32,455 nt of DNA from a virus (Duplodnaviria; Heunggongvirae; Uroviricota; Caudoviricetes), in the IMG/VR virus record IMGVR_UViG_2531839532_000012, positions 1 to 32,455 of that record; one strand, given 5' to 3'. A program made the translations under genes and the position numbers. Of this stretch, positions 3,075 to 31,064 are shown piece by piece. The notes beneath the pieces were generated by a model. It had not been told where the DNA came from and ran no database searches. It was given only the letters and a program-made list of their open reading frames with translations. The stretch's first letter is position 1. Each line of letters begins with the position of its first letter.

Positions 3075-4150
3075 ATGCTTCGCCACTTAACAGGACTCAG
3101 ATTTATAGCTGCATTAATGGTTTATTTATGCCATTTAAATACAGACTATTTTGGTGTTTTTGTAAAAGAAATGTTTTCCCAGGGATTTATTGGCGTTTCC
3201 TTTTTCTTTATTTTATCTGGCTTCATTCTTTCATATTCATATGAAGACAAGCTAAAAAATGAAGTAACAAGTAAAAGACAGTTTATTCTTTTAAGATTGG
3301 CAAGAATTGTTCCAATGCATCTATTATTAGCCATGCCATTTATTTTACTAACCATTCACTTAAAGAACTTTGATTTTTCAAAAACCTTAACAAATATTTT
3401 ATTAATGCAAAGTTGGATACCAAAGGAGGATTACTACTTCTCATTAAATGGTGTATCATGGTCTTTGTCTGATGAGCTGTTTTTTTATTTAATGTTTATT
3501 CCGTTGATTTATACATCAATTACAAAGAAAGTAATCACTGCAATATCAATTATAACTCTACTATTAACTATATATTTTTTAAAAATTATACAAACAGAAG
3601 AACTTAATCACTGGTTATATTATATATTCCCAGTAAGCCGCTTGGTAGAATTTATTTGCGGCATGATTATTTACGCTTGCTGGAAAAACAGCCGACAGCA
3701 GACAGTCGACAGTCGACAGTCGACAGTCGACAGTCGACAGTCGACAGTCGACAGTCGACAGTCGACAGCCTTTTGTTTTTAATTTCACTATTACCTCTGC
3801 TAATAGCTATATATTATAGCAACAACATAAATAATAGTCTACGTTATTCGTTATATTATTTACTCCCCATGGTAATATTCTTTACTTCATGCATCTATCT
3901 AAGAAATGGAGTCATTCATACTATCCTCAGTTCAAAAACCCTAGAGCTATTAGGGAAATCATCATTTATTTTTTATTTAATTCATCAACCCATTATATTA
4001 TTTTGCTTTAAAATCTTTGGACATAACCCCGGACCACTCTATTTAATAGCGCTCCTTGTTATAATAACCATAGTCTCAATCATACTTTATAAATTAGTTG
4101 AGGAGCCTTTAGAGCTGATGCTAAGAAAACGAATTTTAGCAGTAAAATAA
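3075..4150 (+). pseudogene. Acyltransferase-3 family membrane protein (O-acetyltransferase-like), split by frameshift at a heptamer repeat
   Basis: AAGAGG then ATG 3075. N-terminus MLRHLTGLRFIAALMVYLCHL fits acyltransferase_3 proteins and the product is multi-pass hydrophobic. Frame 1 stops at 3782; a second frame continues from the repeat to 4150. Low GC. Confidence 0.7.
3701..3763. repeat. Perfect tandem heptanucleotide repeat (GACAGTC) x9, with degenerate copies at 3694-3700 and 3764-3770
   Basis: Counted directly in the sequence. The unit contains a SalI site (GTCGAC). It sits inside the acyltransferase coding region. Confidence 0.95.
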
Positions 4151-4152
4151 AT

Positions 4153-4178
4153 AAAACCGCGCTATTGCGCGGTTTTAT
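4153..4178. terminator. Bidirectional rho-independent terminator (AAAACCGCGC-tatt-GCGCGGTTTT)
   Basis: Perfect GC-rich hairpin flanked by A-run and T-run, between the convergent acyltransferase gene and the tail-fibre operon. Confidence 0.55.
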
Positions 4179-4341
4179 CTTCAGGCTTGATGAATTTTTT
4201 ACCGTCATATGACCAGCCAATACCAACATCTCCAACACATTTAACTATATCCGCTTTTTCTGGCTTAAACTCTGACTTACCACCCCATACAACAAGATTT
4301 GTAACGACACCATTTTGTACGACTGCATAAATATCGCTCAT
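4162..4341 (-). CDS. Small protein (59 aa) translationally coupled to the tail-fibre gene; possible fibre chaperone
   Basis: ATG overlaps the tail-fibre TAA stop (TAATG). MSDIYAVVQNGVVTNLVVWGG.... Function not recognised. Confidence 0.45.
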   Translation of the reverse strand: MSDIYAVVQNGVVTNLVVWGGKSEFKPEKADIVKCVGDVGIGWSYDGKKFIKPEDKTAQ

Positions 4342-5489
4342 TACTGATACTCCCACACAAGAATATATCCATGATTTCCATTATTTCCTGTCGCTGGGCC
4401 TGATGACGCCTTATTGTATTTCCCTGTCCCGCCAATACCGTATGTCCCAAGCATAGTAGTGGTTATACTTTCAACGCCAATCGCCTGATCATCACCAAAT
4501 CCAAGTGCCCCACATAAATTTGATCGTGAAACTGAATGGAACAGAATCCCTTGCCCTGTAGGAATTGGTGCTTCTGTTGCACTTCCCCCTGAAAATGGAG
4601 GTACCTGCTGAACTTGAGTTGATCCCCTTCCTCCCGGGCATACAAGCAAATCACCAAAGCTTGTATTCCCGCCGTCCCCTCCAGAGCCTCCTGGTCCTGT
4701 TCCTGCTACACCACCGCTTCCAATAGTTACTTGCACGGATTCAGGTATAGACTGATAAAAAAATGCTTTAGCATATGCCCCGTTGGAACCGGCAGCACTT
4801 ACACCACAGTTATTTGAGGCTGTTGCTGATAAATTGCCACTGGCACCACCACCGCCAACGGCTTCCACTATAATTTTCGTTACACCAGGTGATTTGTGAT
4901 AAGTCCCAGATGATCCAAATACCTGAACCCCCAAAAGCCTTCCTGTTCCATCACCAAGTGTTAAATATTGTAGAGTTTCCGATACGTTTTTTTTACTTAA
5001 AATTTCCCTACCATTTCGAGTCAGCGCTGTCATATCCATTGTTCCAGCACCTGTAAAAAATGCCAGCCCATCCGGTATTCCTGTTAAGCTCGACAATGAT
5101 GTCAGATTATCATTTTTATCCTGTTTATCATTCAGAATGTCTGTCATTCCCAGGTTTTCGAGAGCCGTTTGCACAGTGCCATCCGATTTGATATCACCAA
5201 ACGGATTCTTGCGGCTCAGGTATTCAACAGCAAACCCCGATCCCAGCAATTCAACAAAACCGGGCAGATCACCATTATCAAGCACATCCCGTTGCGTTTT
5301 GTCACTTACAAACTGGGCCAGAGCTGCAGCAATAAAGCTGGCCTGCCGAATAACCTTATTGACTTGCGCACTGGATGCTTTCCCTGCTGTAAATCCGGAT
5401 AAAAGCGCAGGCAACGCTTCCCATTCCTCCTGCGACATAACATTGGCATTCCGATCCGTTGCAAACGCTTTAAAGTCATTTTTCGCCAT
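4341..5489 (-). CDS. Phage tail-fibre protein (382 aa from ATG 5489; alternative ATG at 5507)
   Basis: Central motif TALTRNGREILSKKNVSETLQYL resembles the conserved region of lambda Stf and P2 H fibres. Gly-rich C-terminal tip. GC content drops 3' of about 5150. Confidence 0.65.
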   Translation of the reverse strand: MAKNDFKAFATDRNANVMSQEEWEALPALLSGFTAGKASSAQVNKVIRQASFIAAALAQFVSDKTQRDVLDNGDLPGFVELLGSGFAVEYLSRKNPFGDIKSDGTVQTALENLGMTDILNDKQDKNDNLTSLSSLTGIPDGLAFFTGAGTMDMTALTRNGREILSKKNVSETLQYLTLGDGTGRLLGVQVFGSSGTYHKSPGVTKIIVEAVGGGGASGNLSATASNNCGVSAAGSNGAYAKAFFYQSIPESVQVTIGSGGVAGTGPGGSGGDGGNTSFGDLLVCPGGRGSTQVQQVPPFSGGSATEAPIPTGQGILFHSVSRSNLCGALGFGDDQAIGVESITTTMLGTYGIGGTGKYNKASSGPATGNNGNHGYILVWEYQ

Positions 5490-5628
5490 CAGAGTAATAC
5501 TCCCCATGCCCCTACATCAAAACCACTGATGAATTCGTTATCCATATCAAAACCAAAAAATTTTGAACCTTCCGATGGAGTTTCCACCGAAGGTGTTTCA
5601 ATGCCACCCGCCCATACCCCGGCGGCTT

Positions 5629-6000
5629 TTACTGTGAGATAATGGTCATGTAACGCCTGACGCCATTAACGGCCAGCGTTCCGGCACGGTTGAGTGCACT
5701 TTCTGCTCCCGCAGCATTACCATCAAGTGCAGCCTGCGCCGCGGCTTTAAGCTGCGGCACCGTCTGCTCTTCTGCCGATTTAACGCCGGGGACCAGGTGA
5801 GGTCGTGGCGGGATGTTCTGCTCTGGTGAGCCGTATTCGTTGAGGTAACCGATGCCCGCATTACCAAACGGAACATCATCCCGTTCGCTGTCTTCCGAAG
5901 GGATGCCGACCAGCACATCTTTTTTGGTTAACGACCTGAGCGCATCCAGAATGGCCTTAGCGTTATCCACCCTCGTTGTTACACCGCTTTTGAAACTCAT
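5629..6000 (-). CDS. Hypothetical phage structural-module protein (123 aa)
   Basis: ATG overlaps the upstream stop (ATGA). Lies in the head gene cluster. Family not recognised. Confidence 0.5.
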
Positions 6001-6404
6001 AGCTGGCGACCGCCTGCACCGAACATCGTGATCAACTGATAAAATTCAGCGCCATATCGGGTGTTATTCCAGAAACCTGCATCAGGATTCAGCGTCGCGC
6101 TGGTGTCATAGCTGACGCTTACCTTATCCACGGACTTTGAGGACTGAACACCATTGGTTGAACCGCCCGGACCCCCAGCCAGCATCGCTCTGCTGTCAGC
6201 CGCCCAGAGCGTCATGTAGTGAGCAACGAACAACCCGGCAAAGTACGGAAACAACTTTTTGCCGGTGACATTTTCGCTCAGCAGTTCATCGGCCAGATTC
6301 AGACGGAACCCGATTTGGGCGTCGGGATATTTTGCCGGGTCAGCAAACTGCGGGAAGTCGCGGCGAAAATCACTTACCGCTGGCAGACTTTGATTCTTTG
6401 ACAT
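5997..6404 (-). CDS. Phage protein, DUF4054-like (135 aa)
   Basis: Start [13 protein letters not shown] chosen by context. Overlaps the upstream gene by 35 nt. Family assignment from memory only. Confidence 0.45.
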
Positions 6405-6738
6405 CTTTAGCCCCATTACCGCCAGTCCGGGCGGCAGTAATCTGCGCCTGCAGGCTGTCGTTCTGCTCCTGCAGTTTGAGCAATGCATCTTTAAGATCGG
6501 CAATCAGCTTATCTTTGTCGGCAATCTGCGCTTGCAGGCCGTCGATAATGGGTTGCAGATCATCGGTGTCGCTAATCACGCTTTCGGAAAGCTCAGAGTG
6601 CGCCTGGGTGAACCAGTGCGACGCGACCTCTTCCGGTACGTTATGCCGTCCCCGGCCAAACTCCTGTTTTGACTGATCGCCGAGCGTCAGCGTAAACGGG
6701 GTGTGAACATGGATGGTAACCAGCTTTTCTTTCGCCAT
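6370..6738 (-). CDS. Hypothetical coiled-coil phage protein (122 aa)
   Basis: AGGAA then ATG 6738 ([12 protein letters not shown]...). The track ORF's N-terminal extension overlaps the capsid gene and was rejected. Confidence 0.55.
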
Positions 6739-6752
6739 TTCAGTTTCCTTCA

Positions 6753-6768
6753 GGCCCCTTTCGGGGCC
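6753..6768 (-). other. Intercistronic GC hairpin with GNRA loop (GGCCCC-GAAA-GGGGCC) just after the capsid gene
   Basis: Perfect 6-bp all-GC stem, 10 nt after the capsid stop. No U-run follows. Confidence 0.4.
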
Positions 6769-6778
6769 ATTCTGGTTA

Positions 6779-7720
6779 TCAGATACCGTCCACATAGGAC
6801 AGAGTTTCTTTATACACTGGCTCGACTGCACCCAGCTTGCCGTAGTAAGTGACGATCTGATACAGGCCGCGATACTGCACCGGCACGCTCTGAAGCGGAA
6901 CCAGCGGGTAGCGGACGTATTTTTTATCGTTGGTGTACGCAACCATGCGATCCTTATTCCCCACACCACGGCCTTTCAGCCATTTAACCGCGCGGATATT
7001 CAGCGGAACACCGTTCTGGTGATAGCTGATGGTGTTGGTCTGAAGGTACGTCAACAGGGACTGGTTACCCGCAGATGAAACGATGATGCTGGACAACAGA
7101 GCAAACTGTTCAGGCGGGATCAGCAAATCACGCGGGACCACAGAGTAACCAGAAGCGGCCCACGCATCAGACAGCACCTGGTTAATGCTTGCGCGGATTT
7201 CGTCCGGTGTTGAGGTTGCCCACGTTTTGGCAGCGTTGTTGACAGGCACGCCGTCCAGGGTAACAAGGCCTTTCAGGTTTAATGCGGAATCGCCAACATA
7301 TACCTGTTCATCGTTATCCATCTGCCATTTCAGTTGCATCCCGTCATACTTCTGCGTATCAATCGGGCGGCCGACCTGCTGAGCAGCCTGCAATTCTATG
7401 ACCGTCCAGCCAAGTTCCATCCCCCACAGGTTCAGCGGGTTACCGGATTTGCCGGTATCCACGTTCACGCCAGCAATAGCGGTTGAGTCTTTGCCTACCC
7501 AGTTTTTGCCATTCGGATTTGCACCAGTACCCGCAGCGGCGAAGCTGGTATTCGTCCAGCTGGAAATGTCATCTGCGATAGAGACATCTTCACGCAACTG
7601 AATATCGCGGGTCCAGGTGTACCCCACCAGTGGCAGGTTCAGCGTCTGGTCGAGTCGCTCCAGCTCCCCGATGAGAAAGGCACCAGAGCTGTCAACGGTT
7701 GCCTGATCAAAAGTAATCAT
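6779..7720 (-). CDS. Major capsid protein (313 aa; DUF2184-type, assigned from memory)
   Basis: AGGAA upstream of ATG 7720. Position after scaffold and decoration-like genes, and size, typical of a major capsid protein. Confidence 0.65.
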   Translation of the reverse strand: MITFDQATVDSSGAFLIGELERLDQTLNLPLVGYTWTRDIQLREDVSIADDISSWTNTSFAAAGTGANPNGKNWVGKDSTAIAGVNVDTGKSGNPLNLWGMELGWTVIELQAAQQVGRPIDTQKYDGMQLKWQMDNDEQVYVGDSALNLKGLVTLDGVPVNNAAKTWATSTPDEIRASINQVLSDAWAASGYSVVPRDLLIPPEQFALLSSIIVSSAGNQSLLTYLQTNTISYHQNGVPLNIRAVKWLKGRGVGNKDRMVAYTNDKKYVRYPLVPLQSVPVQYRGLYQIVTYYGKLGAVEPVYKETLSYVDGI

Positions 7721-7731
7721 TCGTCTGTTCC

Positions 7732-8238
7732 TTAAATCTTCCAGGAAATTTCTGCATTGCCGTTAGCATCACCGGCACCTGTGAATTCAGCGTTGGTCAG
7801 CACCACATTTTTGCCACTGACTGACGTGGACATGAATCCACCCAGCGGCACTTTCATGGATTCATCAGTGGAGACGACAACGTATACCGGGTCGCCTTTT
7901 TTGATAGTGCTGGCATCAAAATCAGAACCGAGATTAACGGTCACGTAGCCACGCTTCATGGCGTCGCCCGGGAAGTTCTTGCCTGTTCCCACCTGGCGAA
8001 CCATGTCCGGCTGCGACGTGGTCGGATAAGGGCGCACGTAGATCCCCTTCACCTTGTCTGCGGTATCACCATCTGCCAGCGGCACGAAAAAACCGTCATC
8101 ATCGTATTTACCAGCCAGCCCATAGGCAGCGAAGGCGTTATCGGATTTAAGGACCACCGGTTCGACGGTTAAGTCCTGCGGGCGAGAGACAGCCCCGGCA
8201 ATACCAACAGGCATCCGGTACAGAAATACATTATTCAT
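7732..8238 (-). CDS. Phage head structural protein (168 aa; decoration/cement-like)
   Basis: ORF with AGGG upstream, between the scaffold and capsid genes. Confidence 0.55.
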   Translation of the reverse strand: MNNVFLYRMPVGIAGAVSRPQDLTVEPVVLKSDNAFAAYGLAGKYDDDGFFVPLADGDTADKVKGIYVRPYPTTSQPDMVRQVGTGKNFPGDAMKRGYVTVNLGSDFDASTIKKGDPVYVVVSTDESMKVPLGGFMSTSVSGKNVVLTNAEFTGAGDANGNAEISWKI

Positions 8239-8241
8239 TTT

Positions 8242-9462
8242 TTACCCTTTACGGTTTGCCCAGAATTCAGCGTTTTGTTTGTTCAGGGAAGCGATACTGG
8301 TCATGCCCATGTTTAGGCGCTGTGCATCGCCGGTGGTGGCGCGGGTGTTTCGCCCTTTGGCAATCTCAGACACGGCATTAAACGCCATGTCGACCGATTG
8401 TTTCGGCAATTTGCGGATATCCGCATCACCAACTATCTGGCGAACCAGCGTTTTGTCAGCGGAAGCCAGAACCTCGCGTTTGAACGCGGTCGGTTTCATC
8501 TTACGGCTCAGATCGATACCCGGAACAATAACTTCGGCACGCCAGGCTGAGTCACCAGTAATCGTGGTTTCCTCTTCATCGTCCTCGCCGTCACCGGTCG
8601 GATTATCGTCAGGCTTATTATCGTTATCGCCCGTGGCATTTCCTTCCAGCTTAGCCAGCAGGGCTTTCAGTAATGTTTTGAGGTCATCATCACTGTCGCC
8701 GGTTGGGCCTCCCCCCATCTCTGGTGCTTTGTCCGGTAGTGGTTGCTGCGGGGACAGGTTGATATTGAGATTAACGCCCTGCGGCAAATCCCCCTCATCT
8801 CCTGTAACCGATGCGGGAGCCGACTCCACCAGTTCGTTCATGGTGTCGGCATCTCCTGTCTTGATGGCCGCACGCATGCGGTTCCACCAGTTTTTCTTTT
8901 GATTTGCCATTGTGTCTCTGTCTCCAATTGCACAACGATTTCCGGCTCTGCCTTTAGGGACAAGAGCCACATGGTTTCCGGTAATATCGACCTGCTCAGC
9001 TTTACCTGGCTCGGTCTGCTCGTACTCCGCGTCATAGCCGCACGACACTTCGCGCAGGCCATCTTCGATAAGCTGAATGGCGTTTTCGTCTTTGACGATA
9101 AGGTCAGCCAGCATCAAATCAGACTGCTCACCCATCCCGCGCCGGACATTCTGGAGGTGCCCGACAGCAAGCTCTTTCCAGTTCTCGGGATTTACCAGCC
9201 GCACATTCCCGTTTTCATCTTCAGGATGCAGAATCGTGATGCTCATCCCTTCGAATGAGGCAAGCGTGGCCGGATGGAATACCTGCTCAGGAGAACGCGT
9301 GACGACTATTTCACCGAACTTATCGGGTTTCAGTTTTGGCAGGTCATCAGCACCATAGAGCTGCTTACCTGTTCGTCCTATCGGCACGTCTCTGCACAGC
9401 AACGAGCCGTCAGCCAGCTGATAGCGGGTTTCCCCCAGCCGGGTATTGAAAAAATATTTCAT
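8242..9462 (-). CDS. Head maturation protease/scaffold-like protein (406 aa; DUF2213-type)
   Basis: N-terminal domain followed by a long acidic low-complexity linker (GDSDDD...GDGEDDEEE) and a C-terminal domain, the layout of protease-scaffold fusions. Confidence 0.6.
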   Translation of the reverse strand: MKYFFNTRLGETRYQLADGSLLCRDVPIGRTGKQLYGADDLPKLKPDKFGEIVVTRSPEQVFHPATLASFEGMSITILHPEDENGNVRLVNPENWKELAVGHLQNVRRGMGEQSDLMLADLIVKDENAIQLIEDGLREVSCGYDAEYEQTEPGKAEQVDITGNHVALVPKGRAGNRCAIGDRDTMANQKKNWWNRMRAAIKTGDADTMNELVESAPASVTGDEGDLPQGVNLNINLSPQQPLPDKAPEMGGGPTGDSDDDLKTLLKALLAKLEGNATGDNDNKPDDNPTGDGEDDEEETTITGDSAWRAEVIVPGIDLSRKMKPTAFKREVLASADKTLVRQIVGDADIRKLPKQSVDMAFNAVSEIAKGRNTRATTGDAQRLNMGMTSIASLNKQNAEFWANRKG

Positions 9463-9476
9463 GTGTTACCTGCGAT

Positions 9477-10250
9477 TCAGGCGGGATAAGATTGGGAGGT
9501 GGGAAAAACGATTTCTTTATAACAGCGACAATTCGGGAGCTCGCCAGCGTGACCTGTCATGCCGTCAAGCGTTGGAGGTTTGCCCCATTCGACAAATTTA
9601 CCTTCCATTTCCCGATGAGAATGCCTGACGTCACCATCTTCGGCTGTACGCCAGATATAACCATTCGAACCAATTGACAGCGCACGCGCCTGATCCAGCG
9701 CGCCGGTTGCACGTCCAAGTTCAGTACGGGCAATCAGGTCAGCTCTGGACTTTGCTATATCACCCGATGCGGCTATTTCTTTAGCAAAATATTCTGCTCT
9801 CCCACCGGTCACAACAGCTTCTGTCGCCCGATTCTGGATGTCGTACACCCTGTCAGCCGCCTCGAGGGGGAGCGATTTGATGTACTTGACCTGTTCGGCG
9901 ATGATGGATTGCATCACCTGGCCCACAGGAGCGCTTTCCACAAGATTGCGGAGCTCGCGACTGATGTTCTTGCTGTGTTGCCGCCAAACTTTCTCGTTCT
10001 GCCGGGTTAGGTCCGCAGTAAAGTTTTCCGCGACCTTTGTCGCCCAGGGGGTGATGATTTCACTGTAGCGTTCCAGCGCCTCAATAATTTCCGTGATACT
10101 GTCATTTGAACCATCGTAGCGACCATTTACGATGTCTCCGACCGCCCGCGCTATCCTGCGTAGGCTGGTTCGATAGCGGATTTCCGCCTGACGGTTCCTG
10201 CGGTTCGTCATCAGATTCGCCGATGCCGGGCGGCGCTTCATCTTCGGCAT
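9477..10250 (-). CDS. Phage head morphogenesis protein (Mu F / SPP1 gp7-like, 257 aa)
   Basis: Position directly after the portal gene. The start is ambiguous because it overlaps the portal 3' end by 110-149 nt. Confidence 0.55.
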   Translation of the reverse strand: MPKMKRRPASANLMTNRRNRQAEIRYRTSLRRIARAVGDIVNGRYDGSNDSITEIIEALERYSEIITPWATKVAENFTADLTRQNEKVWRQHSKNISRELRNLVESAPVGQVMQSIIAEQVKYIKSLPLEAADRVYDIQNRATEAVVTGGRAEYFAKEIAASGDIAKSRADLIARTELGRATGALDQARALSIGSNGYIWRTAEDGDVRHSHREMEGKFVEWGKPPTLDGMTGHAGELPNCRCYKEIVFPTSQSYPA

Positions 10251-11568
10251 TCTCGATGTCCTCGTCGGTAATGGATGCCCCGATGCCGGTTACGTCAGAA
10301 TTTTCGCGCAAATCAGTCATAGCGGCTTTCAGTGTCATCAGACCATCACCCAGCGCCGTACTGATTGCGTTGGTAGTGTTTAACGCCACCGTTGAGCGAT
10401 CGACATCAGACATTTGCCAGAGCGGGTTAAACTCAAACGTGAAATCATCCGGGAGCGGCTTGCCAAGTTCCGAACGATGCATGATGTCCAGTATCCGACG
10501 CACCGGAAGACGTAAACGCCTCTCCTGCAACGAACTGATGCGGTCGTAATAGTTGGCAAGATCTGCATCACCGGTAGAAAATCCTTTCGGGGACTGTCCG
10601 AACAACCGCACCAGTGGAATACCAACAGCGCCACTAATCTGTTCTGCAAACTGCGATAGGATGTCATCCAGACCACTGAAGCTGTACTGATGCGTTTCAA
10701 ACTTATCCCGCGAGTCCATGAGCGTCATGCCTTCATTGCTCTGGAACTGTCGAATCAGGTCGATATTCTTCAGCAACGCTTCATACGCAGGACCACCAAG
10801 TGCGATAAGCTCGCGTAGCTTCTCCACGCTGTAGGTACGCAAATGCGCCTTGTAGACCAGCTGCGCCGCGCCGACAGTAGCGCTGTCGAACGCGGTAAGA
10901 CGATCCCAGATACGCTCTACAACCGACATTCCCCATTCGTTCTCGGTCATCTTCTGCTGAAATGGCAGCGTGACGCCATCAAAGCGAATCAGGCGACTGT
11001 GATGAATGCGCCAGGCAGGAATTCCCGTTGCTGTGGTCACCACATCGTAAAACTCAGGTTTACCCAGGTCCGGCCCCATATCTTTAATGCGGCGGGTCAG
11101 TACCGGGTCGATCATCCAGCGGTCGAGCGGGAGAATCCCCTTAAACTTGCCCTTACAGATGGTTTCGGGTCGCAGCGGGGTCATTGGTGCCTGCCCCTCA
11201 ATCATGATGAAACCCACCGCGCCGCCGTAGAGGCGCGACCATTTCAGCACGTCATTCAGCGCATCCCAGATTTGCAACTCATCCAGTTGTGATTCGAGAA
11301 TGCCACGATCTTTTGCATCAATTTCCGAAGTGATGCGAATGCCTTTGCGGGTCATATCATCCGGGATAGCATCGACTGCTTCACCGATGATCCAGGATGA
11401 ACGATAGGACCATTCCACCAGCATGCGGTTACGACTGGTGAAATTAGCCCGGTAGGTGGATGCTGAGTGCTGGTTAGGTGTCTGCATCCCTACGCGGGCA
11501 ATAAAATTCTCATAACCATCAGCTGTAGCCTGCGCAGTTCGCCGCAGGGCTTGTTTGTTTCGTGCCAT
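10102..11568 (-). CDS. Portal protein (488 aa)
   Basis: ATG overlaps the large-terminase stop (ATGA). Size and position after the large terminase. Confidence 0.7.
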   Translation of the reverse strand: MARNKQALRRTAQATADGYENFIARVGMQTPNQHSASTYRANFTSRNRMLVEWSYRSSWIIGEAVDAIPDDMTRKGIRITSEIDAKDRGILESQLDELQIWDALNDVLKWSRLYGGAVGFIMIEGQAPMTPLRPETICKGKFKGILPLDRWMIDPVLTRRIKDMGPDLGKPEFYDVVTTATGIPAWRIHHSRLIRFDGVTLPFQQKMTENEWGMSVVERIWDRLTAFDSATVGAAQLVYKAHLRTYSVEKLRELIALGGPAYEALLKNIDLIRQFQSNEGMTLMDSRDKFETHQYSFSGLDDILSQFAEQISGAVGIPLVRLFGQSPKGFSTGDADLANYYDRISSLQERRLRLPVRRILDIMHRSELGKPLPDDFTFEFNPLWQMSDVDRSTVALNTTNAISTALGDGLMTLKAAMTDLRENSDVTGIGASITDEDIENAEDEAPPGIGESDDEPQEPSGGNPLSNQPTQDSAGGRRHRKWSLRWFK

Positions 11569-13190
11569 CAGGCCTGTCTCCCTAGCAGCTCCCAGATGTT
11601 CAGGGCTGAATTCATTGGGGCATAGTTGATCATCACCGAGTCGGCAAGGTTTGGCGACCGGGTTCCATCAGGCTGTTTATCAATAACGATTTTTCCCACA
11701 CTATTAATGGAATAGGTCGGCTGCGAAAGCTCGATGATGAGTTTATCTTTGAGTGCCATGCTACTGCTGATTGAGATGATCTCGTCCGGGTTGTAAGCCA
11801 TACCTTCAACCACGGCGCGCCAGGTATTCTGAAAAAGTTTACGTAACCGCCACCAGCTCTGGGCTTTGGCGTTAGCGAAGAAGTCCTTGTTCAGACGTGC
11901 GGCTTGCCCGTTGTCCCCGCGAACAGCTTCATCATCCGGATCAAATACCGCGCCACTACCTCGAAACGGTGTGGCAAGTATTGACGGTCGACGCGCAGCG
12001 TTACGCAGTTCGTTGATAGCGCGTGCATCGCCGCGAACGCCAGCGCCCAGCCCGTCCTCGTCAAAGCGAAACTCTTCGAGGTTGTCCTGTTCGCAAAAGC
12101 CGAAAACCTTCTCAACGGACTGATAAATGTCGCTGCCCACACCGGACCATTCCCGCACATTCTCCAGGAGGAAGCCATGACGGGTGGAAAAGGCATTTTT
12201 GTCCCTGCCTTCGTCGGCGACATCCATCGCGCCAAGTCGTTTGCCTGTTGGCTGGATACCCAGTTTGATATGCGCATCAACTGCAGCCTGTACCCATTCG
12301 GATGGAATCAGGACGCCTTCCGCTGATGCGCTGTAGTTCAGATCAAGTTCCTGTGCCACCACCACCGGATTATCGATTTTCTCGCATTCCCTGCGATACC
12401 ACTCTTCATCCTTGCGAAGATCATCTCGCCAGTGGAATGTGAATACCGGTATCTTCCCGCCATGACGCTTCTGAGCGAACGGGTTCGCCATGCCGTTAAC
12501 TGAACTCAGGTCAATACGGCAACGCGTCGTTTGTGACAACGCCGCATCAATCAGCAGAGGACGCTGAAGGAATGCAGCCTCATCAACCAGATAAAGCGTG
12601 GTACGGTCACCACGACCAATATTATCGCCAGCCTCGCCTTTGATAACGGCACCAGTTTCAGGAAACTCAACACGCATATATGGCGCGTGCTTCTTCTCGC
12701 TCCACGAACCGCGAAACTCTACAGGTAGCGTTTCCACGAACTTGCGCGCCTTCCAGAACAATGCTTTCGGGTCACCAGTGCTGTCGACGTATTCCTCTTT
12801 ACGGGAGCCGAAACCGATAACCATTTCTTTGTTGAAGAGACAAAGCGAGCAGGCCAGTCCGATCGCGGTCCAACTGAGCCCCATTTCACGGGATTTTTCG
12901 GTAATACCATTCTCCCGATTGCTCCAGCGTTCCATAATCCAGTGGATCCACTCCTCCTGCTTAGGGAAGAGTAAAAACGGAATGGTCCCCGGCAGGCCAT
13001 AATCAATATTACGCGGGTCCGTTGTCATGCCCCAGTCGATGATGAACTGAGCCGGATTAGTTCGGTAAAACTGTTTTAGTGCAGGCAATATTTCAGGATT
13101 CTGGCGAATGCGCTGTAGGCGTTCCATCCGCCATTCAAAAACCATCTGGTAATCAGGATGTTTAAAATCGAAGGGGAATGGTAACGGCAT
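11568..13190 (-). CDS. Terminase large subunit (540 aa)
   Basis: N-terminal ATPase region and C-terminal nuclease region (...LYLVDEAAF...). Follows the small subunit by 2 nt. Confidence 0.85.
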
Positions 13191-13192
13191 AC

Positions 13193-13744
13193 TTAGCCCA
13201 TTATTTTTCTATACGCCTCTGCAGCCTGCTCCGGCGTTAAGTTGGTAATTTCTGTTCTGACTGGTCCTCCATCAGCGCCAGTCACTTCATTTTTGACGTT
13301 GTCTTTAAACGCCTGAACAGAAACATGACGCCCAAGCAACTCAAGGTTTTTAACCTTATCAGGCCATTTGATTTTCTTCAGAAGTGCGGCGCTATCTGCG
13401 GATACCATCTCCACGACATCCATTCCTGATAGCGTTGTGCGCCATACCTTAGGCCAGTCTTTAATGGGCTTTAGCTCACCGTTTTGCAGGAGAATGTCGA
13501 GCACATCCATCTGGTCGATTTCAATAAGGCGATTAAGTACATATTCTGCATTAATACCAACAAGATCATTGCGTTGCGCTTTCAGTTCGGCGATTCTTAA
13601 CTTGATGTCAGGTTTTGACAGGTTTTCGGATGCGGTACGGTTAGCTGTCTTTGCGCTGTCCCCCGCCCGAATAGCCGCTTGCGTGGCGTTTAAATCGATG
13701 AGGTACTCGCGACAGAACATCTCTTGTTTGTCGGTGAGTGCCAT
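13193..13744 (-). CDS. Terminase small subunit (183 aa)
   Basis: N-terminus [28 protein letters not shown] is the HTH signature of small terminase subunits. Confidence 0.7.
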
Positions 13745-14823: not shown

Positions 14824-15285
14824 CTAATTTGAACACTGCTCTTTGATGTAGTCCTGCAAGTAGCCGACCTGCTTCGTCACTGTGACGATTCGCTCTCTGA
14901 GGGTGAAATAATCCCGTTCAGCGGAGTCAGTAAGTCCGGGGCTGGAAGCATCGCCCAAGCTGCCGGTGCCGGTCTTTCCGCTCGCTGGACATCGGGCATT
15001 GAAGTGCAGCCCACACTTGCCAGTGCGAACACAACGCTGCAGATCATCAAGCTGCTTTTTCGCATCAGCTAGTTCTCCGGTGTATTTAGCATCGAGTGCA
15101 TCAGCATCACGCTGGCGCTGCTGCATGTCAGTAATTGCCGCGTTCGCCAGCTTCAGTTCTCTGGCATTTTTGTCGCGCTGGGCTTTGTAGGTAATGGCGT
15201 TATCACGGTAATGATTAACAGCCCATGACAGGCAGACGATGATGCAGATAACCAAAGCGGAGATAATCGCGGTGACTCTGCTCAT
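14824..15285 (-). CDS. Spanin inner-membrane subunit Rz (153 aa)
   Basis: N-terminal TM helix, coiled-coil body, overlaps the endolysin stop, embedded Rz1 frame. Confidence 0.8.
14877..15065 (-). CDS. Spanin outer-membrane lipoprotein Rz1 (62 aa), embedded in Rz
   Basis: Lipobox LASVGC and Pro-rich [11 protein letters not shown]...[11 protein letters not shown], closely resembling lambda Rz1. Confidence 0.75.
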
Positions 15286-15758
15286 ACCTCAATCTCTCTG
15301 ACCGTTCCGCCAGCTTTTTTAAATCGGGCAATCAGGTCACCGATTTTATGTTCATACTGACCGTAACCTGCACCAGGTAACGACGCCCAGATATTGCTGC
15401 AACGGTCGATTGCCTGACGAATACTGCCGCGGTCAATCATCGGTAAAGCACCACGTTCTTGAATCTGCTGCAGAGCTACAGCGTCCTGACTTTCTGGAGA
15501 AAAATCTTTCAGGCCAAGCTGTTTACGGTAAGCATCCCACCAGCGTGAAAGAAGCTGGTAACGTCCGGCGGCTGTTGATTTGAGTTTGGGGTTTAGCGTG
15601 ACAAGTTTGCGGGGGTGATCGGAGTAATCAGTGAACAGTTCGCCACCAACAATAACATCATAACCGTGGTTACGTGTCGGTTGTCGCCCGTTATCCGTTC
15701 CTTCTGACCATGCCACCATATCCAGGAAAGCTTTACGCTGTGAATTTAGTGCCTGCAT
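15282..15758 (-). CDS. Endolysin, lambda R-type lytic transglycosylase (158 aa)
   Basis: Near-identity to recalled lambda R ([21 protein letters not shown]...[20 protein letters not shown]...). Confidence 0.9.
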
Positions 15759-15761
15759 AAA

Positions 15762-16103
15762 TTACTCCTTCGATCTACCAAATTTGTTACCGATTACTCG
15801 CATTGCAGCCCCACGAATAGCATCGACACCGATCAGCCCCACGCCACCACCAATGGCAACAGAAAGCGATTTAGGCCATCCGACATACTCAAGAGCGGAT
15901 GCAAAGGTCAGCGTCAGAGCGCCACATAGCAAAATCTCGAGCGTTTTTCGCTTCCAGCCACCACCACCGCCAAAATAGGCGATGCGCAACCCAGCCATAA
16001 CGATCGACATAATCACTGCGCCCAGCGGTGTGTCTCCACGCCACCAACTTTGTAAGAGTTCCAGTAAGTCAGGCCAGGAATGAGGGACATTGTGCATTTT
16101 CAT
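15762..16103 (-). CDS. Holin with dual-start motif (Met-Lys-Met)
   Basis: ATGs at 16103 and 16097 give MKMHNV..., the lambda S antiholin/holin arrangement. GGAGG upstream. Hydrophobic helices. Directly upstream of the endolysin. Confidence 0.65.
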   Translation of the reverse strand: MKMHNVPHSWPDLLELLQSWWRGDTPLGAVIMSIVMAGLRIAYFGGGGGWKRKTLEILLCGALTLTFASALEYVGWPKSLSVAIGGGVGLIGVDAIRGAAMRVIGNKFGRSKE

Positions 16104-16320
16104 AAGCCTCACCTCCGAAAGTTCGGATGGTGCTAAATGTAAGATTCAGGCTCTCTGGCTTGCTCACAAGAAGTCGAGGATGTTTCCGGAGCCTAACAAC
16201 GAAAAAGCCCCGGGACATGCCAGGGCCAGATGGAGTACCAGATTAAGCTTCTGGCGGTATATCCTCGTGTTTGATATCGTTAAATCGCCAAAAGTAACCA
16301 TATCAATTAAAGGAGTATAT

Positions 16321-19784: not shown

Positions 19785-19940
19785 TTACTCCTCAGATTCG
19801 TAAGCTGTGAAGACAGCAACCTCCGTCTGGCCGGTACGGATTCGTACCTCGCAGAGGTCTTTCCTCGTTACCAGTGCCGTCACTATGACGGTTAAACAGA
19901 TGACGATCAGGGCGATTAACATCGCCTTTTGCTGCTTCAT
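19785..19940 (-). CDS. hok: Hok/Gef-family type I toxin (51 aa)
   Basis: MKQQKAMLIALIVICLTVIVTALVTRKDLCEVRIRTGQTEVAVFTAYESEE, near-identical to recalled HokD/RelF. SD GGAGAAG. Confidence 0.85.
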   Translation of the reverse strand: MKQQKAMLIALIVICLTVIVTALVTRKDLCEVRIRTGQTEVAVFTAYESEE

Positions 19941-24479: not shown

Positions 24480-24902
24480 TCAATGCACTACGACAGAATC
24501 GCCGGGCGACCCACCACCGCTGAAATGTGCTTTCCGGTAAACGGCCTGGACTGCATCATCATGCGCATCAATTGCCGTACTCAACGCTTCCTGCGCCGCC
24601 AGTAATGCACGGCGCTCCAGGGTATCGAAGATGCAGATTCGGTGACGCAGCTCGCGCGGAAGAATTGCCAGAACCGCAGGGATCAGTTTCTGAATTTTTT
24701 CCCTTTGCGCTTTCGTTTCACCTTTCAACCAACGGTGATAGATATTCTGCTGATTGTTCCAGTCCTTGCCTGGTACAAGGGGCAATTCGCCTCCCCCCTG
24801 GCGCAGATATTCTTCAGTAATTGCGTTAGCGACCCACGCCTGCCCTTTTTCGGCTGCCAGGGCTAACAACACTGATTCGATGTGCTCATGCCTGATTTTC
24901 AT
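24480..24902 (-). CDS. ydaT: YdaT-like protein (140 aa), CII-position regulator
   Basis: MKIRHEHIESVLLALAAEKGQAWVANAITEEYLRQGGGELPLVPG matches recalled Rac YdaT. ATG overlaps the cro-like stop. Confidence 0.65.
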   Translation of the reverse strand: MKIRHEHIESVLLALAAEKGQAWVANAITEEYLRQGGGELPLVPGKDWNNQQNIYHRWLKGETKAQREKIQKLIPAVLAILPRELRHRICIFDTLERRALLAAQEALSTAIDAHDDAVQAVYRKAHFSGGGSPGDSVVVH

Positions 24903-25141
24903 GAATCAACCGCTCCTATGCTGTTTTCGCTATGCTTACCGCCTGGGGGGAATACATCGTCAAGTCCACAATGAGCGCCAAGCCGATTAAGGGTAGAAAC
25001 AATTTTTCTGCACTCCTCTAGTCCAGGGGTACGAAAATTTGCTTCGTAATTTGCCAGTCGGCTTTGTATCCACCCTAACTGAACAGCAAGTTGTCTTTGA
25101 GACAGCCCAAGCTGTTTTCGATATGTTGAAATTTTGTTCAT
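24899..25141 (-). CDS. Cro-like HTH regulator (XRE family, 80 aa)
   Basis: HTH QLGLSQRQLAVQLGWIQSRLANYE. Divergent from the repressor gene across an operator-containing intergenic region. Confidence 0.7.
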   Translation of the reverse strand: MNKISTYRKQLGLSQRQLAVQLGWIQSRLANYEANFRTPGLEECRKIVSTLNRLGAHCGLDDVFPPGGKHSENSIGAVDS

Positions 25142-25165
25142 TGAAAACCTCCGATGACAATTTTA

Positions 25166-25180
25166 AACACATCTTGTGTT
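25166..25180. promoter_or_regulatory. Operator palindrome AACACATCTTGTGTT in the cro/cI intergenic region
   Basis: Dyad with CAC-N5-GTG half-sites, within the spacer of a candidate minus-strand promoter (TTGACC at 25185-25190). Confidence 0.5.
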
Positions 25181-25211
25181 ATATGGTCAAGCTGTTTTGT
25201 GTTTTATGTAA

Positions 25212-25226
25212 ATCACGATTCGTGAT
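25212..25226. promoter_or_regulatory. Operator palindrome ATCACGATTCGTGAT upstream of the repressor gene
   Basis: Perfect 7-bp arms, 12 bp upstream of the repressor ATG. Confidence 0.5.
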
Positions 25227-25237
25227 ACAAGGATGCA

Positions 25238-25657
25238 ATGGAAAAAGAAAACGAAAAAATTGCCGCTAGTAGGCTCAATGACAAAATTGCAATGCGTCTT
25301 AAAGAGCGCAGGCAGAAGCTTGGTTTATCTCAAGGAAAACTTGCTGAAATCTGCGGATGGACGCAATCGCGTATAGGTAACTATGAGGCGGGCAGCAGAA
25401 ATGTTGGAGTGCATGACGCTGTCGTATTGGGAAAGGCTCTTGGCATATCTCCTCCTGAGCTCCTCTTTGGAGAACAGGAATCTTCTGAATTGTGGTTAAA
25501 TGAATCCCAACGAAAACTTCTTGAGTTGTTTAACCAGCTACCGGGCTCAGAACAACAACGAATGATTGAGCTATTTGAAGTCCGGCTAAAAGAAATCGAT
25601 GAGTATGTAGAAAAATATTTGAGAGGCAGGCTTAAAGATAATCCCCCACCGGAGTAA
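25238..25657 (+). CDS. CI-type prophage repressor (DicA-like, XRE HTH, 139 aa)
   Basis: HTH LGLSQGKLAEICGWTQSRIGNYE. C-terminal ...LLELFNQLPGSEQQRMIELFE resembles DicA. AAGGA upstream of the ATG. Confidence 0.8.
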   Translation: MEKENEKIAASRLNDKIAMRLKERRQKLGLSQGKLAEICGWTQSRIGNYEAGSRNVGVHDAVVLGKALGISPPELLFGEQESSELWLNESQRKLLELFNQLPGSEQQRMIELFEVRLKEIDEYVEKYLRGRLKDNPPPE

Positions 25658-25687
25658 TGATCTTGCTATCACAGTAATATGCCAATC

Positions 25688-25712
25688 AGCCCGCTATCAG
25701 CGGGCTTTTTTT
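25688..25712 (+). terminator. Rho-independent terminator after the repressor gene
   Basis: AGCCCGCT-atc-AGCGGGCT followed by TTTTTTT. Confidence 0.6.
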
Positions 25713-25741
25713 GTACCATCATCATATGACACCCACCACAA

Positions 25742-25783
25742 AACACATTTCGTGTTGACACAAGAAAACACATTGTGTTTAAT
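25742..25783 (+). promoter_or_regulatory. PL-like early promoter (TTGACA-N17-TTTAAT) overlapped by operator palindromes
   Basis: Palindromes AACACATTTCGTGTT (25742-25756) and AACACATTGTGTT (25767-25779) overlap the -35 and spacer. Points toward kilR-recET. Confidence 0.5.
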
Positions 25784-25957
25784 AAGCATATCCAAACAAC
25801 GCCCCACCAGAGAACGGCAGGACAATACCTCGAGTTATCCAGCCACTGAACAGGGCTAAGTAGCCAGCCTGAGGCATACGAACATGACGGCAGTTGTTGA
25901 TTGATACAAAGCGCAGTAGATAAAACGTTCCGCCACCCGGCGTTAAGGGGAAAAAAG

Positions 25958-26176
25958 ATGGTTGGTGAAGATCTGGTTGTTATTAACGGTCAATTGTGCA
26001 GCAAAGATGTGGCAGCCATGCTTATTAGCAAGGTTCTTCCAACTGTGCTGGATGTCATTGCAGAAAAAGTAAAGGCTGGTCGTCCAGACAAGGAAGTTGA
26101 AGAGGCGGCAAAAACAGTTGTTCATGCCGCTACAGAAGCAATTATTTTGAAGAGCCTAGTTTCGCCCAAGCCTTAA
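25958..26176 (+). CDS. Hypothetical small early protein (72 aa)
   Basis: GGGG then ATG 25958. First ORF downstream of the PL-like promoter. Confidence 0.4.
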   Translation: MVGEDLVVINGQLCSKDVAAMLISKVLPTVLDVIAEKVKAGRPDKEVEEAAKTVVHAATEAIILKSLVSPKP

Positions 26177-26731
26177 GTGAATCGGCGCTTTTTTTAGCAT
26201 CACGTTCATTGAGTAGTGACAAAAACTCATTCTCAGCATTCTCGATTTCCGAGAAAAATTCTTGATGAGTTGTTTCTCGCTGCGATCTGATGCTGAAAGC
26301 TAAAGCAAGTAGCCAGGCTTTGTCTTTATTATCCATCGGAATACCTTATTACTGGTTGTGTGAGAACTCCAGTATACCACCGAGCCTGAAGTGGTAAAAA
26401 GACAGGCGCACAACACGAAGGCGCATTTCCGGTATTCATAAAGAGTCGGTCTTGTCTGTTAAATTTAAATGGTGGGAGTGCGCCTCCGGTTGTAAATAAC
26501 GACATTGCTATGTGTAGTCTTTGGCGGCATCAGTTCTACTCCGTGGCTGCCCTGTCGCCCCTTTTTAAAGTGAATTTTGTGATGCGGTGAATGCGGCTAA
26601 GCGCACGCGGCACAGTTAAAAGCATCAGTGTTATGGGTGGATTATCCGGCGTTAATTGTTAACTGGTTAACGTCACCTGGAGGCACCAGGCACCGCATCG
26701 ACAAAATTCATTTGTAAAAATGGAGATAATT

Positions 26732-26953
26732 ATGATTGCTCATCACTTCGGAACTGATGAAATACCACGTCAGTGTGTGACCCCTGGCGATTATGTTCTT
26801 CATGAAGGTCGGACATATATCGCCTCGGCAAACAATATTAAAAAGCGAAAACTTTATATTCGTAGCCTGACTACAAAAACATGCATTTCTGACTGCATGA
26901 TTAAAGTCTTCCTCGGTCGTGATGGTTTACCTGTAAAGGCGGAGTCATGGTAA
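26732..26953 (+). CDS. kilR: KilR, FtsZ-targeting cell-division inhibitor (73 aa)
   Basis: [29 protein letters not shown]... matches recalled Rac KilR. GGAG 7 nt upstream. Confidence 0.7.
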
Positions 26954-27123
26954 TGACTAAGAAAATAAAATGTGCTTATCACCTTTGCAATAAAGAAATT
27001 GAAGAAAGCAAAATCATTACAAGACCACTTCATTTCATGCGTGGAGTTATACCAACGACGGAAATGAAAAAATATTGTAGTGAAATCTGTGCCGAAAAAG
27101 ACCAGATGGCACACGAACTTTAA
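26953..27123 (+). CDS. ydaE: YdaE, small zinc-ribbon protein (56 aa)
   Basis: ATG overlaps the kilR stop (TAATG). Cys pairs CAYHLC...CSEIC. Matches recalled Rac YdaE. Confidence 0.7.
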   Translation: MTKKIKCAYHLCNKEIEESKIITRPLHFMRGVIPTTEMKKYCSEICAEKDQMAHEL

Positions 27124-27197
27124 TTAACTGACTATCCGAAACTGAATTTATGCCAGCAATGGCAGGGATTCGCTCAACCTTAATTAAGGAGAAAAAC

Positions 27198-27473
27198 ATG
27201 ATTACCAGTTATGAAGCCACTGTTGTTACTACTGATGACATTGTTCACGAAGTCAGCCTGGAAGGAAAGCGTATTGGCTACGTGATTAAAACAGAAAATA
27301 AAGAAGCCCCTTTCACTGTGGTTGATATCGACGGTCCATCAGGCAACGTTAAAACACTTAACGAAGGCGTCAAAAAAATGTGCCTAGTGCATATCGGAAA
27401 GAATCTGCCCGCAGAAAAAAAAGCCGAATTTCTGGCAACTCTGATTGCAATGAAATTAAAAGGTGAAATCTGA
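27198..27473 (+). CDS. racC: RacC (91 aa)
   Basis: AAGGAG then ATG. MITSYEATVVTTDDIVHEV... matches recalled Rac RacC. Confidence 0.7.
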   Translation: MITSYEATVVTTDDIVHEVSLEGKRIGYVIKTENKEAPFTVVDIDGPSGNVKTLNEGVKKMCLVHIGKNLPAEKKAEFLATLIAMKLKGEI

Positions 27474-27572
27474 AGAAATAGCCTGCGTATGACGCAGGCT
27501 ATGAACAGTGTGTATCCGGCAAGATTATTCACTGAACAAACGAATTTTAATCTGAGTTGAGGTTAAAAAACA

Positions 27573-30206: not shown

Positions 30207-31008
30207 GCAACCACCTATCGCAAAAGCCGATCTGCAAAAAACCCAGGGAAACCGTGCACCAGCAGCAGTAAAAAATAACGACGTGATCAGCTTTATTAAT
30301 CAGCCATCAATGAAAGAGCAACTGGCAGCAGCTCTCCCACGCCATATGACGGCTGAACGAATGATACGTATCGCCACCACAGAAATTCGTAAGGTTCCGG
30401 CGCTAGGAAACTGTGACACCATGAGTTTTGTCAGTGCGATCGTTCAGTGTTCACAGCTCGGCCTTGAGCCAGGTAGCGCCCTCGGCCACGCATATTTACT
30501 GCCTTTTGGTAATAAAAACGAAAAGAGCGGTAAAAAGAACGTTCAGCTAATCATTGGTTATCGCGGCATGATTGATCTGGCTCGCCGTTCTGGTCAAATC
30601 GCCAGCCTGTCAGCCCGTGTTGTCCGTGAAGGTGACGAGTTTAGTTTTGAATTTGGCCTTGATGAAAAGTTAATACACCGCCCGGGAGAAAACGAAGATG
30701 CACCAGTGACCCACGTCTATGCTGTCGCAAGACTGAAAGACGGAGGGACTCAGTTTGAAGTTATGACGCGCAAACAGATTGAACTGGTGCGCAGCCAGAG
30801 TAAGGCTGGTAATAACGGGCCATGGGTAACTCACTGGGAAGAAATGGCAAAAAAAACGGCTATTCGTCGCCTGTTTAAATACCTGCCTGTCTCAATTGAA
30901 ATCCAGCGTGCAGTATCAATGGATGAAAAGGAACCACTGACAATCGATCCGGCAGACTCCTCTGTATTAACCGGGGAATACAGTGTAATCGATAATTCAG
31001 AAGAATAA
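30199..31008 (+). CDS. recT: Recombinase RecT, ssDNA annealing protein (269 aa)
   Basis: [26 protein letters not shown]... matches recalled RecT. Start overlaps the recE stop. Confidence 0.9.
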
Positions 31009-31064
31009 TTCAGCCTGGCGGTGTAATGCACCGCCAACGTGAGACAGTTTTTATGACAAAAATT

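Follow-up and report, generated by a model that had tools for sequence, protein, structure and literature searches.

The window analysed here, a 32,455-nucleotide stretch of viral DNA (IMG/VR record IMGVR_UViG_2531839532_000012), most probably carries a decaying Escherichia coli prophage from which a single deletion of about 11 kb took the tail block of a SEN34-like contractile-tailed phage; on the sequence comparisons described below, we put the probability of this reading at about 0.92. The event is a real but unremarkable case of prophage decay. The element is a chromosomal prophage of ~31 kb located between pphA and yebY: in the annotation of a near-identical strain, pphA forms the left host flank, and xis-int followed by yebY lies on the right. 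No tube, sheath, tape-measure or whole baseplate gene was found anywhere in the window, and the annotation of the 99.9%-identical region of strain 300709 lists none for a tube, sheath, tape measure or baseplate, in agreement with the first-pass annotation, which had described the tail module as missing.

The head module is complete and runs on the minus strand from the small terminase to a head-to-tail adaptor (13744–5997), after which the tail-fibre gene follows nearly at once; Pfam and PHROGs searches confirmed the proposed gene order from the small terminase through the capsid gene and three small genes to the fibre. The small terminase subunit (13193–13744, 183 aa; Pfam Terminase_2, E = 5.9e-38) is intact and carries the same name in the annotation of strain 300709. 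It is followed by an intact large terminase subunit (11568–13190, 540 aa; phrog_2, terminase large subunit, E = 6e-31), equal in length to its counterparts in vB_EcoM-606R2, SEN34, E41 and H10407, and by the portal protein (10102–11568, 488 aa; Pfam Phage_portal_3, E = 2e-105). The next gene encodes a Mu-F-like head morphogenesis (minor head) protein (9477–10250; Pfam Phage_Mu_F, E = 2e-17), for which RefSeq gives the bounds 9477–10211 in window coordinates and the same protein accession as in H10407. A DUF2213 head maturation protease/scaffold (8242–9462, 406 aa; Pfam DUF2213, E = 3e-42, with matches to PHROGs head maturation protease families) precedes a capsid cement/decoration protein (7732–8238, 168 aa) matching Pfam XM1_gp53_minor_capsid and Phage_cement, the family of E217 gp24 and Pam3 gp6; in E217, gp24 forms a trimer that decorates the capsid (PMC10329688). 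The major capsid protein (6779–7720, 313 aa; Pfam Major_capside, E = 4e-87) is followed by a small STY1053-family protein of no assigned role (6370–6738, 122 aa; phrog_2619), whose position is conserved across relatives and whose RefSeq accession, WP_001040697.1, is common to strains 300709 and H10407. The module closes with an intact 135-aa head-to-tail adaptor (5997–6404; Pfam DUF4054 (E217_gp27), E = 1e-27), a family in which E217 gp27 is the dodecameric adaptor sitting on the portal (PMC10329688). The element thus possesses its own capsid and packaging set (terS, terL, portal, protease and capsid).

The deletion junction lies at 5640–5641, where the two nucleotides “TA” are common to both flanks. 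It was placed from BLAST endpoints and base-by-base comparison with loci L001 and L004, and from BLAST endpoints with L015. The search for deletion endpoints by comparison with intact relatives, as the first-pass annotation had proposed, thus resolved the junction to the base and found both ends inside genes. Site-specific recombination, by Pin or at att sites, was considered as the cause of the junction and rejected, with just 2 nt shared and no evident recombinase site.

On the head side, the junction cuts a neck gene (5629–6000, minus strand): codons 1–120 (5641–6000) of a 184-aa connector are followed by three foreign codons (ISQ) and a stop. The first 120 residues of the resulting 123-aa stump are identical to the 184-aa protein of ETEC H10407, and RefSeq treats the stump as a pseudogene with a missing C-terminus. 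Of the three small genes reported between the capsid gene and the fibre, the adaptor and the STY1053-family gene therefore stand, and the third is not an intact gene but this chimeric stump. The full-length 184-aa protein matches the connector family phrog_222 (E = 7e-48; label “tail completion or Neck1”), and its neck/connector role is assigned from this match together with its place in the gene order, after the adaptor and before the neck terminator. It has no Pfam match; phmmer and a 29-sequence profile run against PDB sequences returned only spurious low-complexity matches to alpha-synuclein, and a Foldseek search of the PDB with an AlphaFold2 model (mean pLDDT 68) gave nothing with E < 1.

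On the fibre side, the interval 5489–5641 (minus strand) comprises the last 50 codons and the stop of a DUF2612 baseplate gene, with no 5′ part. Its translation, YLTVKAAG...GAWGVLL*, is identical to the C-terminal end of the 226-aa DUF2612 protein encoded in strain E41 (WP_000049950.1), an accession shared by E41 and H10407; the full-length protein matches Pfam DUF2612 with E = 4e-47. The 121-bp “gap” described before the fibre is consequently not intergenic DNA. An out-of-frame reading frame of 58 codons (5489–5665) had been taken for the 3′ remnant of a deleted gene, and this was right for its last 50 codons (5489–5641), which are real coding sequence; the rest is no remnant, the whole being a stop-to-stop open frame in which no ORF of at least 50 aa is listed. 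Comparison with intact relatives also places the fibre start most likely at the ATG at 5489–5487, overlapping the TGA of the upstream gene (TGATG), and not at 5507.

Intact relatives reveal what lay between the two stumps. Window positions 5640–13375 are 99.3% identical to the prophage of ETEC H10407, and positions 5149–5641 match the same prophage at 96.8% identity, 11,265 bp away from the head-side match. The corresponding interval, absent here, measures 11,018 bp in phage vB_EcoM-606R2 and 11,786 bp in the prophage of strain E41, and in every intact relative examined, both breakpoint genes reside in one genome, in the same orientation, 11.0–11.8 kb apart. With collinear flanks on either side of 5640/5641 and truncated genes at both ends, the earlier suggestion that a deletion removed the tail module is borne out.

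Relative to the intact relatives, 16 whole genes are lost. Pfam families of the missing interval in these relatives include Phage_tail_terminator_9, DUF3383, KPP10_Orf10/DUF3277 and Phage_TAC_15, alongside a 662-aa tape measure, a Dit-like protein, a Pam3_gp18 plug, an E217_GP41-like hub, a spike protein, Baseplate_J and DUF2612. The DUF3383 position is occupied by a protein annotated as tail sheath in SEN34, and gene order suggests that KPP10_Orf10/DUF3277 holds that of the tube protein. According to Pfam and the annotations of the relatives, the interval encodes functions essential for virions.

The temperate myophages SEN34 (Brunovirus) and vB_EcoM-606R2 and the H10407 and E41 prophages share the head module of the window at 85–99% DNA identity and in the same order: terS, terL, portal, Mu-F, DUF2213, cement, major capsid protein, STY1053, DUF4054 adaptor and 184-aa connector. 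The fibre N-terminus is also of the type found in the SEN34/vB_EcoM-606R2 group, and the fibre and acyltransferase arm recurs in E41. Unlike these phages, the window lacks the 11.0–11.8 kb block from neck to baseplate, and its early region is Rac-like (kilR, recET, ralR, xis, int), whereas that of vB_EcoM-606R2 differs. More distantly, the simple myophages of the E217, Pam3 and XM1 type share Pfam families with the window for the cement protein and the adaptor (E217 gp27), and with its relatives for the plug (Pam3 gp18) and the hub (E217 gp41). This likeness holds at the family level only, the 184-aa connector having no detectable match to a solved structure by sequence or fold. A literature search for described SEN34-like E. 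coli prophages gave nothing directly relevant.

The deletion is real and inherited, as the same chimeric protein and the same junction recur in independent material. The exact chimeric 123-aa protein is present on 21 contigs from independent samples and adjoins pphA wherever a contig extends into the host flank, and an identical 60-mer across the junction occurs in ten assemblies, namely strain 300709 and nine other fetched loci (L003 and L005–L013; NCBI and Logan). The junction is rare: among 5426 complete E. coli genomes, it is spanned in only one, although 1163 carry parts of the query. In some of the assemblies that share it, more of the head, terminase or lysis genes are gone: in L007 and L011, window position 8028 is joined to about 13637, removing the cement gene through terS; in L008, position 8028 is joined to 15099; and in L010, position 6533 is joined to 22010. 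Together with the IS1 insertion in the integrase of the window, these secondary deletions in sister isolates point to an ongoing drift towards loss.

Three other explanations of the head-fibre juxtaposition were weighed against a deletion within one prophage. The junction might have arisen by recombination between two phages, one donating the head and the other the fibre-acyltransferase arm. The best relatives of the two flanks do differ: H10407, the best head-side match (99.3%), has a different fibre C-terminus, and E41, the best match on the fibre side (98.8%), shows just 91–95% identity on the head side. These phages are also clearly mosaic; the STY1053 gene, for example, is variable, as is the C-terminal part of the fibre. 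None of the relatives compared matches both flanks at 99% identity or more, so the exact sequence and length of the deleted segment are deduced from mosaics. However, the mosaic boundary on the fibre side falls inside the fibre gene, near window position 5149, and not at the junction, and the co-residence of the co-oriented breakpoint genes in every intact relative means that a simple intramolecular deletion explains the junction, leaving recombination between two phages highly improbable. Whichever route was taken, the result is the same: no tail module, and two genes cut short.

An assembly artefact, in the form of a collapsed or mis-joined contig, could be invoked given that just one of the complete E. 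coli genomes has the junction, but it is extremely unlikely: the ten assemblies sharing the junction are independent and derive from different sequencing runs, and the window differs elsewhere from strain 300709, with a short tandem array of a 7-nt repeat that is of another length and with the IS1 inserted in int. The proposal that the three small genes after the capsid gene form a minimal short tail, making the phage complete, has nothing but their position in its favour and has practically no probability. Homology identified the genes at 5629–6404 as a head-to-tail adaptor of the E217 gp27 type and the stump of a neck connector, the STY1053-family gene precedes a complete tail module in relatives too, and these relatives, which have contractile tails, carry about 16 tail genes more.

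The first-pass annotation had also raised a helper-dependent, head-making element, and a capsid-forming satellite, established or incipient, that makes DNA-filled heads and is adapted to the tails of a helper was considered. All its head and packaging genes are present at full length, it retains the head-to-tail adaptor, and by analogy with classical head-tail complementation, a related superinfecting phage could supply the neck and tail in trans. Like capsid-forming PICIs (cfPICIs) such as EcCIEDL933, the window encodes terS, terL, portal, protease, capsid and a head-tail adaptor, and no tube, sheath or tape-measure protein. In the SatelliteFinder definition of cfPICIs, however, holins and tail proteins are “forbidden” components (PMC10085698), and the window contains a lambda-family holin (15762–16103), the fibre (4341–5489) and the DUF2612 stump (5489–5641). 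Further unlike cfPICIs, the element measures ~31 kb, has a holin-endolysin-Rz cassette, which marks it as a phage and not a satellite, and carries genes near-identical to those of an ordinary phage. Its head-tail connection is incomplete, with the adaptor intact, the next connector truncated and the following neck gene deleted. A PICI-type left arm (integrase, AlpA/MerR-type regulator, primase-replicase) was not recognised in the annotation of the near-identical strain, which lists no AlpA-type regulator or primase-replicase module and describes a lambdoid/Rac-type early region instead.

The history of the element speaks against such an adaptation as well. Both deletion endpoints are intragenic, and the connector needed for head-tail joining is cut mid-gene. 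The 99.3% identity of the head side to an ordinary prophage indicates that there is no distinct satellite lineage. Same-junction carriers have shed the protease/scaffold, Mu-F, portal and terL genes, with pieces of cement and terS gone as well, which indicates that head production is not being maintained, and the single place in strain 300709 that matches an adaptor/neck/fibre probe indicates no closely related resident helper there. We consequently regard the satellite reading as highly unlikely, and the earlier proposal of helper dependence is not upheld. There is a slim chance that heads with DNA still form and are completed in trans when a SEN34-like phage superinfects and provides the neck and tail, in which case carriers with an IS1-broken int could package in situ. 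If so, the element would be a satellite in the making, and such carriers would act as an in-situ headful packaging engine mobilising neighbouring chromosomal DNA when given helper tails. For satellite hunting, the case carries a caution: head genes without tail genes are insufficient for calling a capsid-forming satellite, and a broken prophage is indicated by gene stumps at the boundaries, by the presence of lysis genes and by a sequence almost identical to that of an intact phage.

Under the deletion reading, the prophage combines a late region of the contractile-tail type of SEN34 and vB_EcoM-606R2 (Brunovirus-like) with a Rac-like early region. One illegitimate-recombination event at the 2-nt microhomology removed about 11 kb, beginning with codon 121 in the gene of the 184-aa neck protein and ending with codon 176 in the DUF2612 gene. 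This deletion took the second neck protein, the neck terminator, sheath, tube, tail assembly chaperone and tape measure, together with the hub, plug, spike and wedge proteins of the baseplate and baseplate J, and placed the head module beside the tail-fibre gene. Whereas the deletion is read directly from the comparison, its consequences we infer: the prophage would be unable to build tails or a complete neck, and the most it could do is lyse its host and set free heads that have no tail and cannot infect. Nothing in the sequence of the window suggests that head production has ceased, since every head, terminase and lysis gene in it is full length. The prophage would now be drifting towards loss.

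Classical cryptic prophages such as Rac, DLP12, Qin and e14 in E. coli K-12 are lambdoid remnants fixed in the chromosome; deletions and IS insertions have stripped them of structural modules, and scattered fibre, pin-invertase, lysis and recombination genes survive. The prophage described here resembles them in the Rac-type genes of its early region. Compared with them, it stands at a much earlier stage of decay, with full-length head, packaging, lysis and regulatory sets, and its single causal deletion is readable at base resolution. It is a clear illustration, resolved to the base, of how prophage decay begins, of little importance beyond annotation. Within one E. coli lineage, the microhomology deletion of the tail module was followed by separate losses among the head, terminase and lysis genes and by the insertion of IS1 in the integrase.

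The lysis cassette (14824–16112, minus strand), taken from the RefSeq annotation of strain 300709, comprises the holin, an endolysin and an Rz-like protein, and the early region annotated in that strain contains an HTH repressor pair, ydaT, ydaV, a gene for a DUF1133 family protein and recET. The window matches strain 300709 only up to position 32080. Bases 32081–32455 match IS1 in thousands of E. coli records and interrupt the prophage integrase, which starts at 31794, after about 96 codons; in strain 300709, int is intact and encodes 359 aa.

The tail-fibre gene (4341–5489, minus strand; 382 aa from the ATG at 5489) matches phrog_11303, phrog_1396 and other fibre families, as well as Pfam Gly_rich_2, and combines a SEN34-type N-terminal attachment region with a glycine-rich C-terminal domain. 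The acyltransferase gene of the fibre-acyltransferase arm is frameshifted; a literature search for a described 7-bp repeat switch in prophage acyltransferases gave nothing directly relevant. In strain E41, the same fibre gene, at 98.8% identity, lies downstream of a full tail module. A 59-aa gene of no assigned function (4162–4341, minus strand; phrog_14370) follows the fibre and is annotated in both 300709 and E41, its linkage to the fibre being seen in E41 as well.

The window shares 99.9% identity with the chromosome of E. coli strain 300709 (NZ_CP025903.1). RefSeq annotates this region as a prophage flanked by pphA and yebY, in which the head module is accompanied by a holin-endolysin-Rz cassette, lambdoid regulators and an early region of Rac-like type (kilR, recE, recT, ralR, xis, int). 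The head and fibre genes under study all lie on the minus strand, and Pfam and PHROGs identified a small terminase (13193-13744), a large terminase (11568-13190), a portal (10102-11568), a Mu-F-like morphogenesis protein (9477-10250), a DUF2213 protease/scaffold (8242-9462), a cement/decoration protein (7732-8238) and a major capsid protein (6779-7720). Three small ORFs follow the capsid gene, and then a 382/388-aa protein matching many tail-fibre families in both databases. The first-pass annotation had described a head module without a tail module, placed directly before the fibre; this gene order is correct, because the RefSeq annotation of the matching 300709 region contains no tube, sheath, tape-measure or baseplate genes either.

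Four relatives retain the tail module, and their identity to the head module is 96-98% for Escherichia phage vB_EcoM-606R2, 85% for Salmonella phage SEN34 (Brunovirus), 99.3% for the ETEC H10407 prophage and 91-95% for the E. coli E41 prophage. Downstream of the capsid gene, all four carry a small STY1053-family gene, a DUF4054 protein and a 184-aa protein; the DUF4054 family includes E217 gp27, the dodecameric head-to-tail adaptor seated on the portal (PMC10329688). These are followed by a 129-aa protein, a neck terminator, a sheath (DUF3383), a DUF3277/KPP10_Orf10 protein in the tube position, a tail assembly chaperone and a ~660-aa tape measure, and the last stretch encodes a Dit-like baseplate protein, a Pam3-gp18-type plug, an E217-gp41-like hub, a spike, baseplate J, a DUF2612 protein and finally the tail fibre.

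BLAST alignment of the window to these relatives yielded two blocks with a single meeting point: 5149-5641 pairs with the end of DUF2612 plus the beginning of the fibre gene, and the sequence from 5640 on with the head module and the gene for the 184-aa protein. The proposed comparison with intact prophages thus placed the deletion endpoints at 5640/5641, where the two flanks overlap by only 2 nt, "TA" (5640-5641). The interval absent from the window measures 11,018 bp in vB_EcoM-606R2, 11,265 bp in H10407 and 11,786 bp in E41, and in the latter two it holds 16 complete genes and two partial ones. On one side, the ORF at 5629-6000 encodes residues 1-120 of the H10407 184-aa protein without change, followed by ISQ and a stop. 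PHROGs places the 184-aa protein in phrog_222 ("tail completion or Neck1 protein", connector category; E=7e-48), and neither its sequence profile nor its predicted fold matched a virion component of solved structure. On the other side, translation of 5489-5641 exactly reproduces the C-terminal 50 residues of the DUF2612 protein (226 aa), so the open frame ending at the fibre TGATG is indeed the gene remnant it had been taken for. According to the intact relatives, the fibre starts at the ATG at 5489, overlapping the DUF2612 stop, and not at 5507.

These data show that one deletion, at a microhomology of 2 nt, truncated a connector gene and a baseplate gene and removed all tail and baseplate genes except the fibre. 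Tail-module deletion, the first of two explanations originally offered, is thereby established at base resolution; the event itself would have been an illegitimate recombination inside one prophage. Upon induction, the element may still be able to replicate, package DNA into heads and lyse the cell, and the product would be only tailless heads with incomplete necks.

Could the juxtaposition be an assembly artefact? Independent assemblies in NCBI and Logan encode the exact chimeric 123-aa protein on 21 contigs, a 60-mer over the junction is identical in all nine loci retrieved and in 300709, and the window is not 300709 itself: its 7-nt repeat array has another length, and its int carries an IS1 insertion. 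Because the identical junction recurs in independent assemblies and the window is distinct from 300709, an artefact is excluded and the deletion arose once, within one lineage. The deletion is inherited and rare: the junction is spanned in just one of 5426 complete E. coli genomes (parts of the query are found in 1163), and the pphA site is the same on every contig with the 123-aa protein that is long enough to include host flank.

The other original explanation was a satellite that makes heads and takes tails from a helper. What defines capsid-forming PICIs (cfPICIs) is a left arm of PICI type together with capsid, portal, protease, terS, terL and head-tail adaptor/connector genes of their own; holins and tail genes exclude an element from the group (PMC10085698). 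The likeness is limited to the absence of tail genes: the element carries holin and endolysin genes as well as a tail fibre and the stump of a baseplate gene, its connector gene is broken, its regulatory and replication genes are lambdoid/Rac-like, and its DNA is near-identical to an ordinary prophage. For these reasons it does not belong to the cfPICIs, and the satellite reading was rejected; the element is a normal early-stage defective prophage. As with any such prophage, trans-complementation by a related superinfecting phage is possible in principle; nothing points to an adaptation to it, and strain 300709 has no second site matching the adaptor/neck/fibre probe.

Decay has continued in loci sharing the junction. 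In L007 and L011, an extra deletion joins the cement gene (8028) to terS (~13637), removing the protease/scaffold, Mu-F, portal and terL genes; in L008, 8028 is joined to 15099, inside an Rz-like gene, and in L010, 6533 is joined to 22010. Two different secondary deletions, with right endpoints at ~13637 and 15099, share exactly the left endpoint 8028 (…GGTCGGATA|), possibly reflecting a deletion hotspot, a lost mobile element or stepwise events. The L007, L011 and L008 contigs all stop at window position 15150. At 31794-32455 of the window, the prophage integrase is cut at 32080/32081, after ~96 codons, by an IS1; int is intact in 300709 (359 aa); the prophage is thus probably locked into the chromosome of the window's strain, where excision would probably be impossible. 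The secondary deletions and the IS1 hit are later than the tail deletion, and these losses argue that selection is not maintaining head production.

In E41, the fibre, a 59-aa gene and the acyltransferase arm, 98.8% identical to the window, lie downstream of a full tail module. Because the same fibre arm follows that module, the fibre is native to this type of phage. RefSeq labels the fibre (4341-5489) a pseudogene "missing C-terminus" in 300709 and E41; its frame is open over 382 aa and ends in a C-terminal glycine-rich domain (Pfam Gly_rich_2), and the fibre is more likely intact, with a receptor-binding end of an unusual kind, than a pseudogene. In E41 (L004 1-17200), the intact relative, a myophage prophage, directly adjoins a P4-like satellite that encodes a tyrosine integrase, an Icd-like protein and a primase of the P4 family.

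Toxin-like and Rac-type cargo lies at 19785-19940 and 24480-31260 (hokD, a ydaT-family toxin, kilR, recE/recT, ralR); given this early cargo, the prophage is a mosaic in which a Rac-like early arm is combined with a late arm of SEN34-like type. The left arm at 1398-2950 is a patchwork of remnants, namely a Pin-type DNA invertase, a gp53-like fibre-tip domain, a tail-fibre assembly gene fragment, a 3' fragment of an HK620/IntS-type integrase and a LexA/S24-type repressor fragment, which appear to be leftovers from an invertible fibre segment and another phage.

Within the prophage acyltransferase gene (3075-4150, plus strand), tandem 7-nt units (ACAGTCG/ACAGCAG) occupy 3688-3768. The 11.6 units in the window frameshift the gene into two ORFs; among loci otherwise 99.9% identical, 3.6 units, in 300709, E41, L005 and L008, keep it in frame (339 aa). 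The expanded arrays, including 8.6 units in L007 and L010 and 23.6 in L006, are all out of frame, and the array looks like a slipped-strand on/off switch of a surface-polysaccharide-modifying enzyme.
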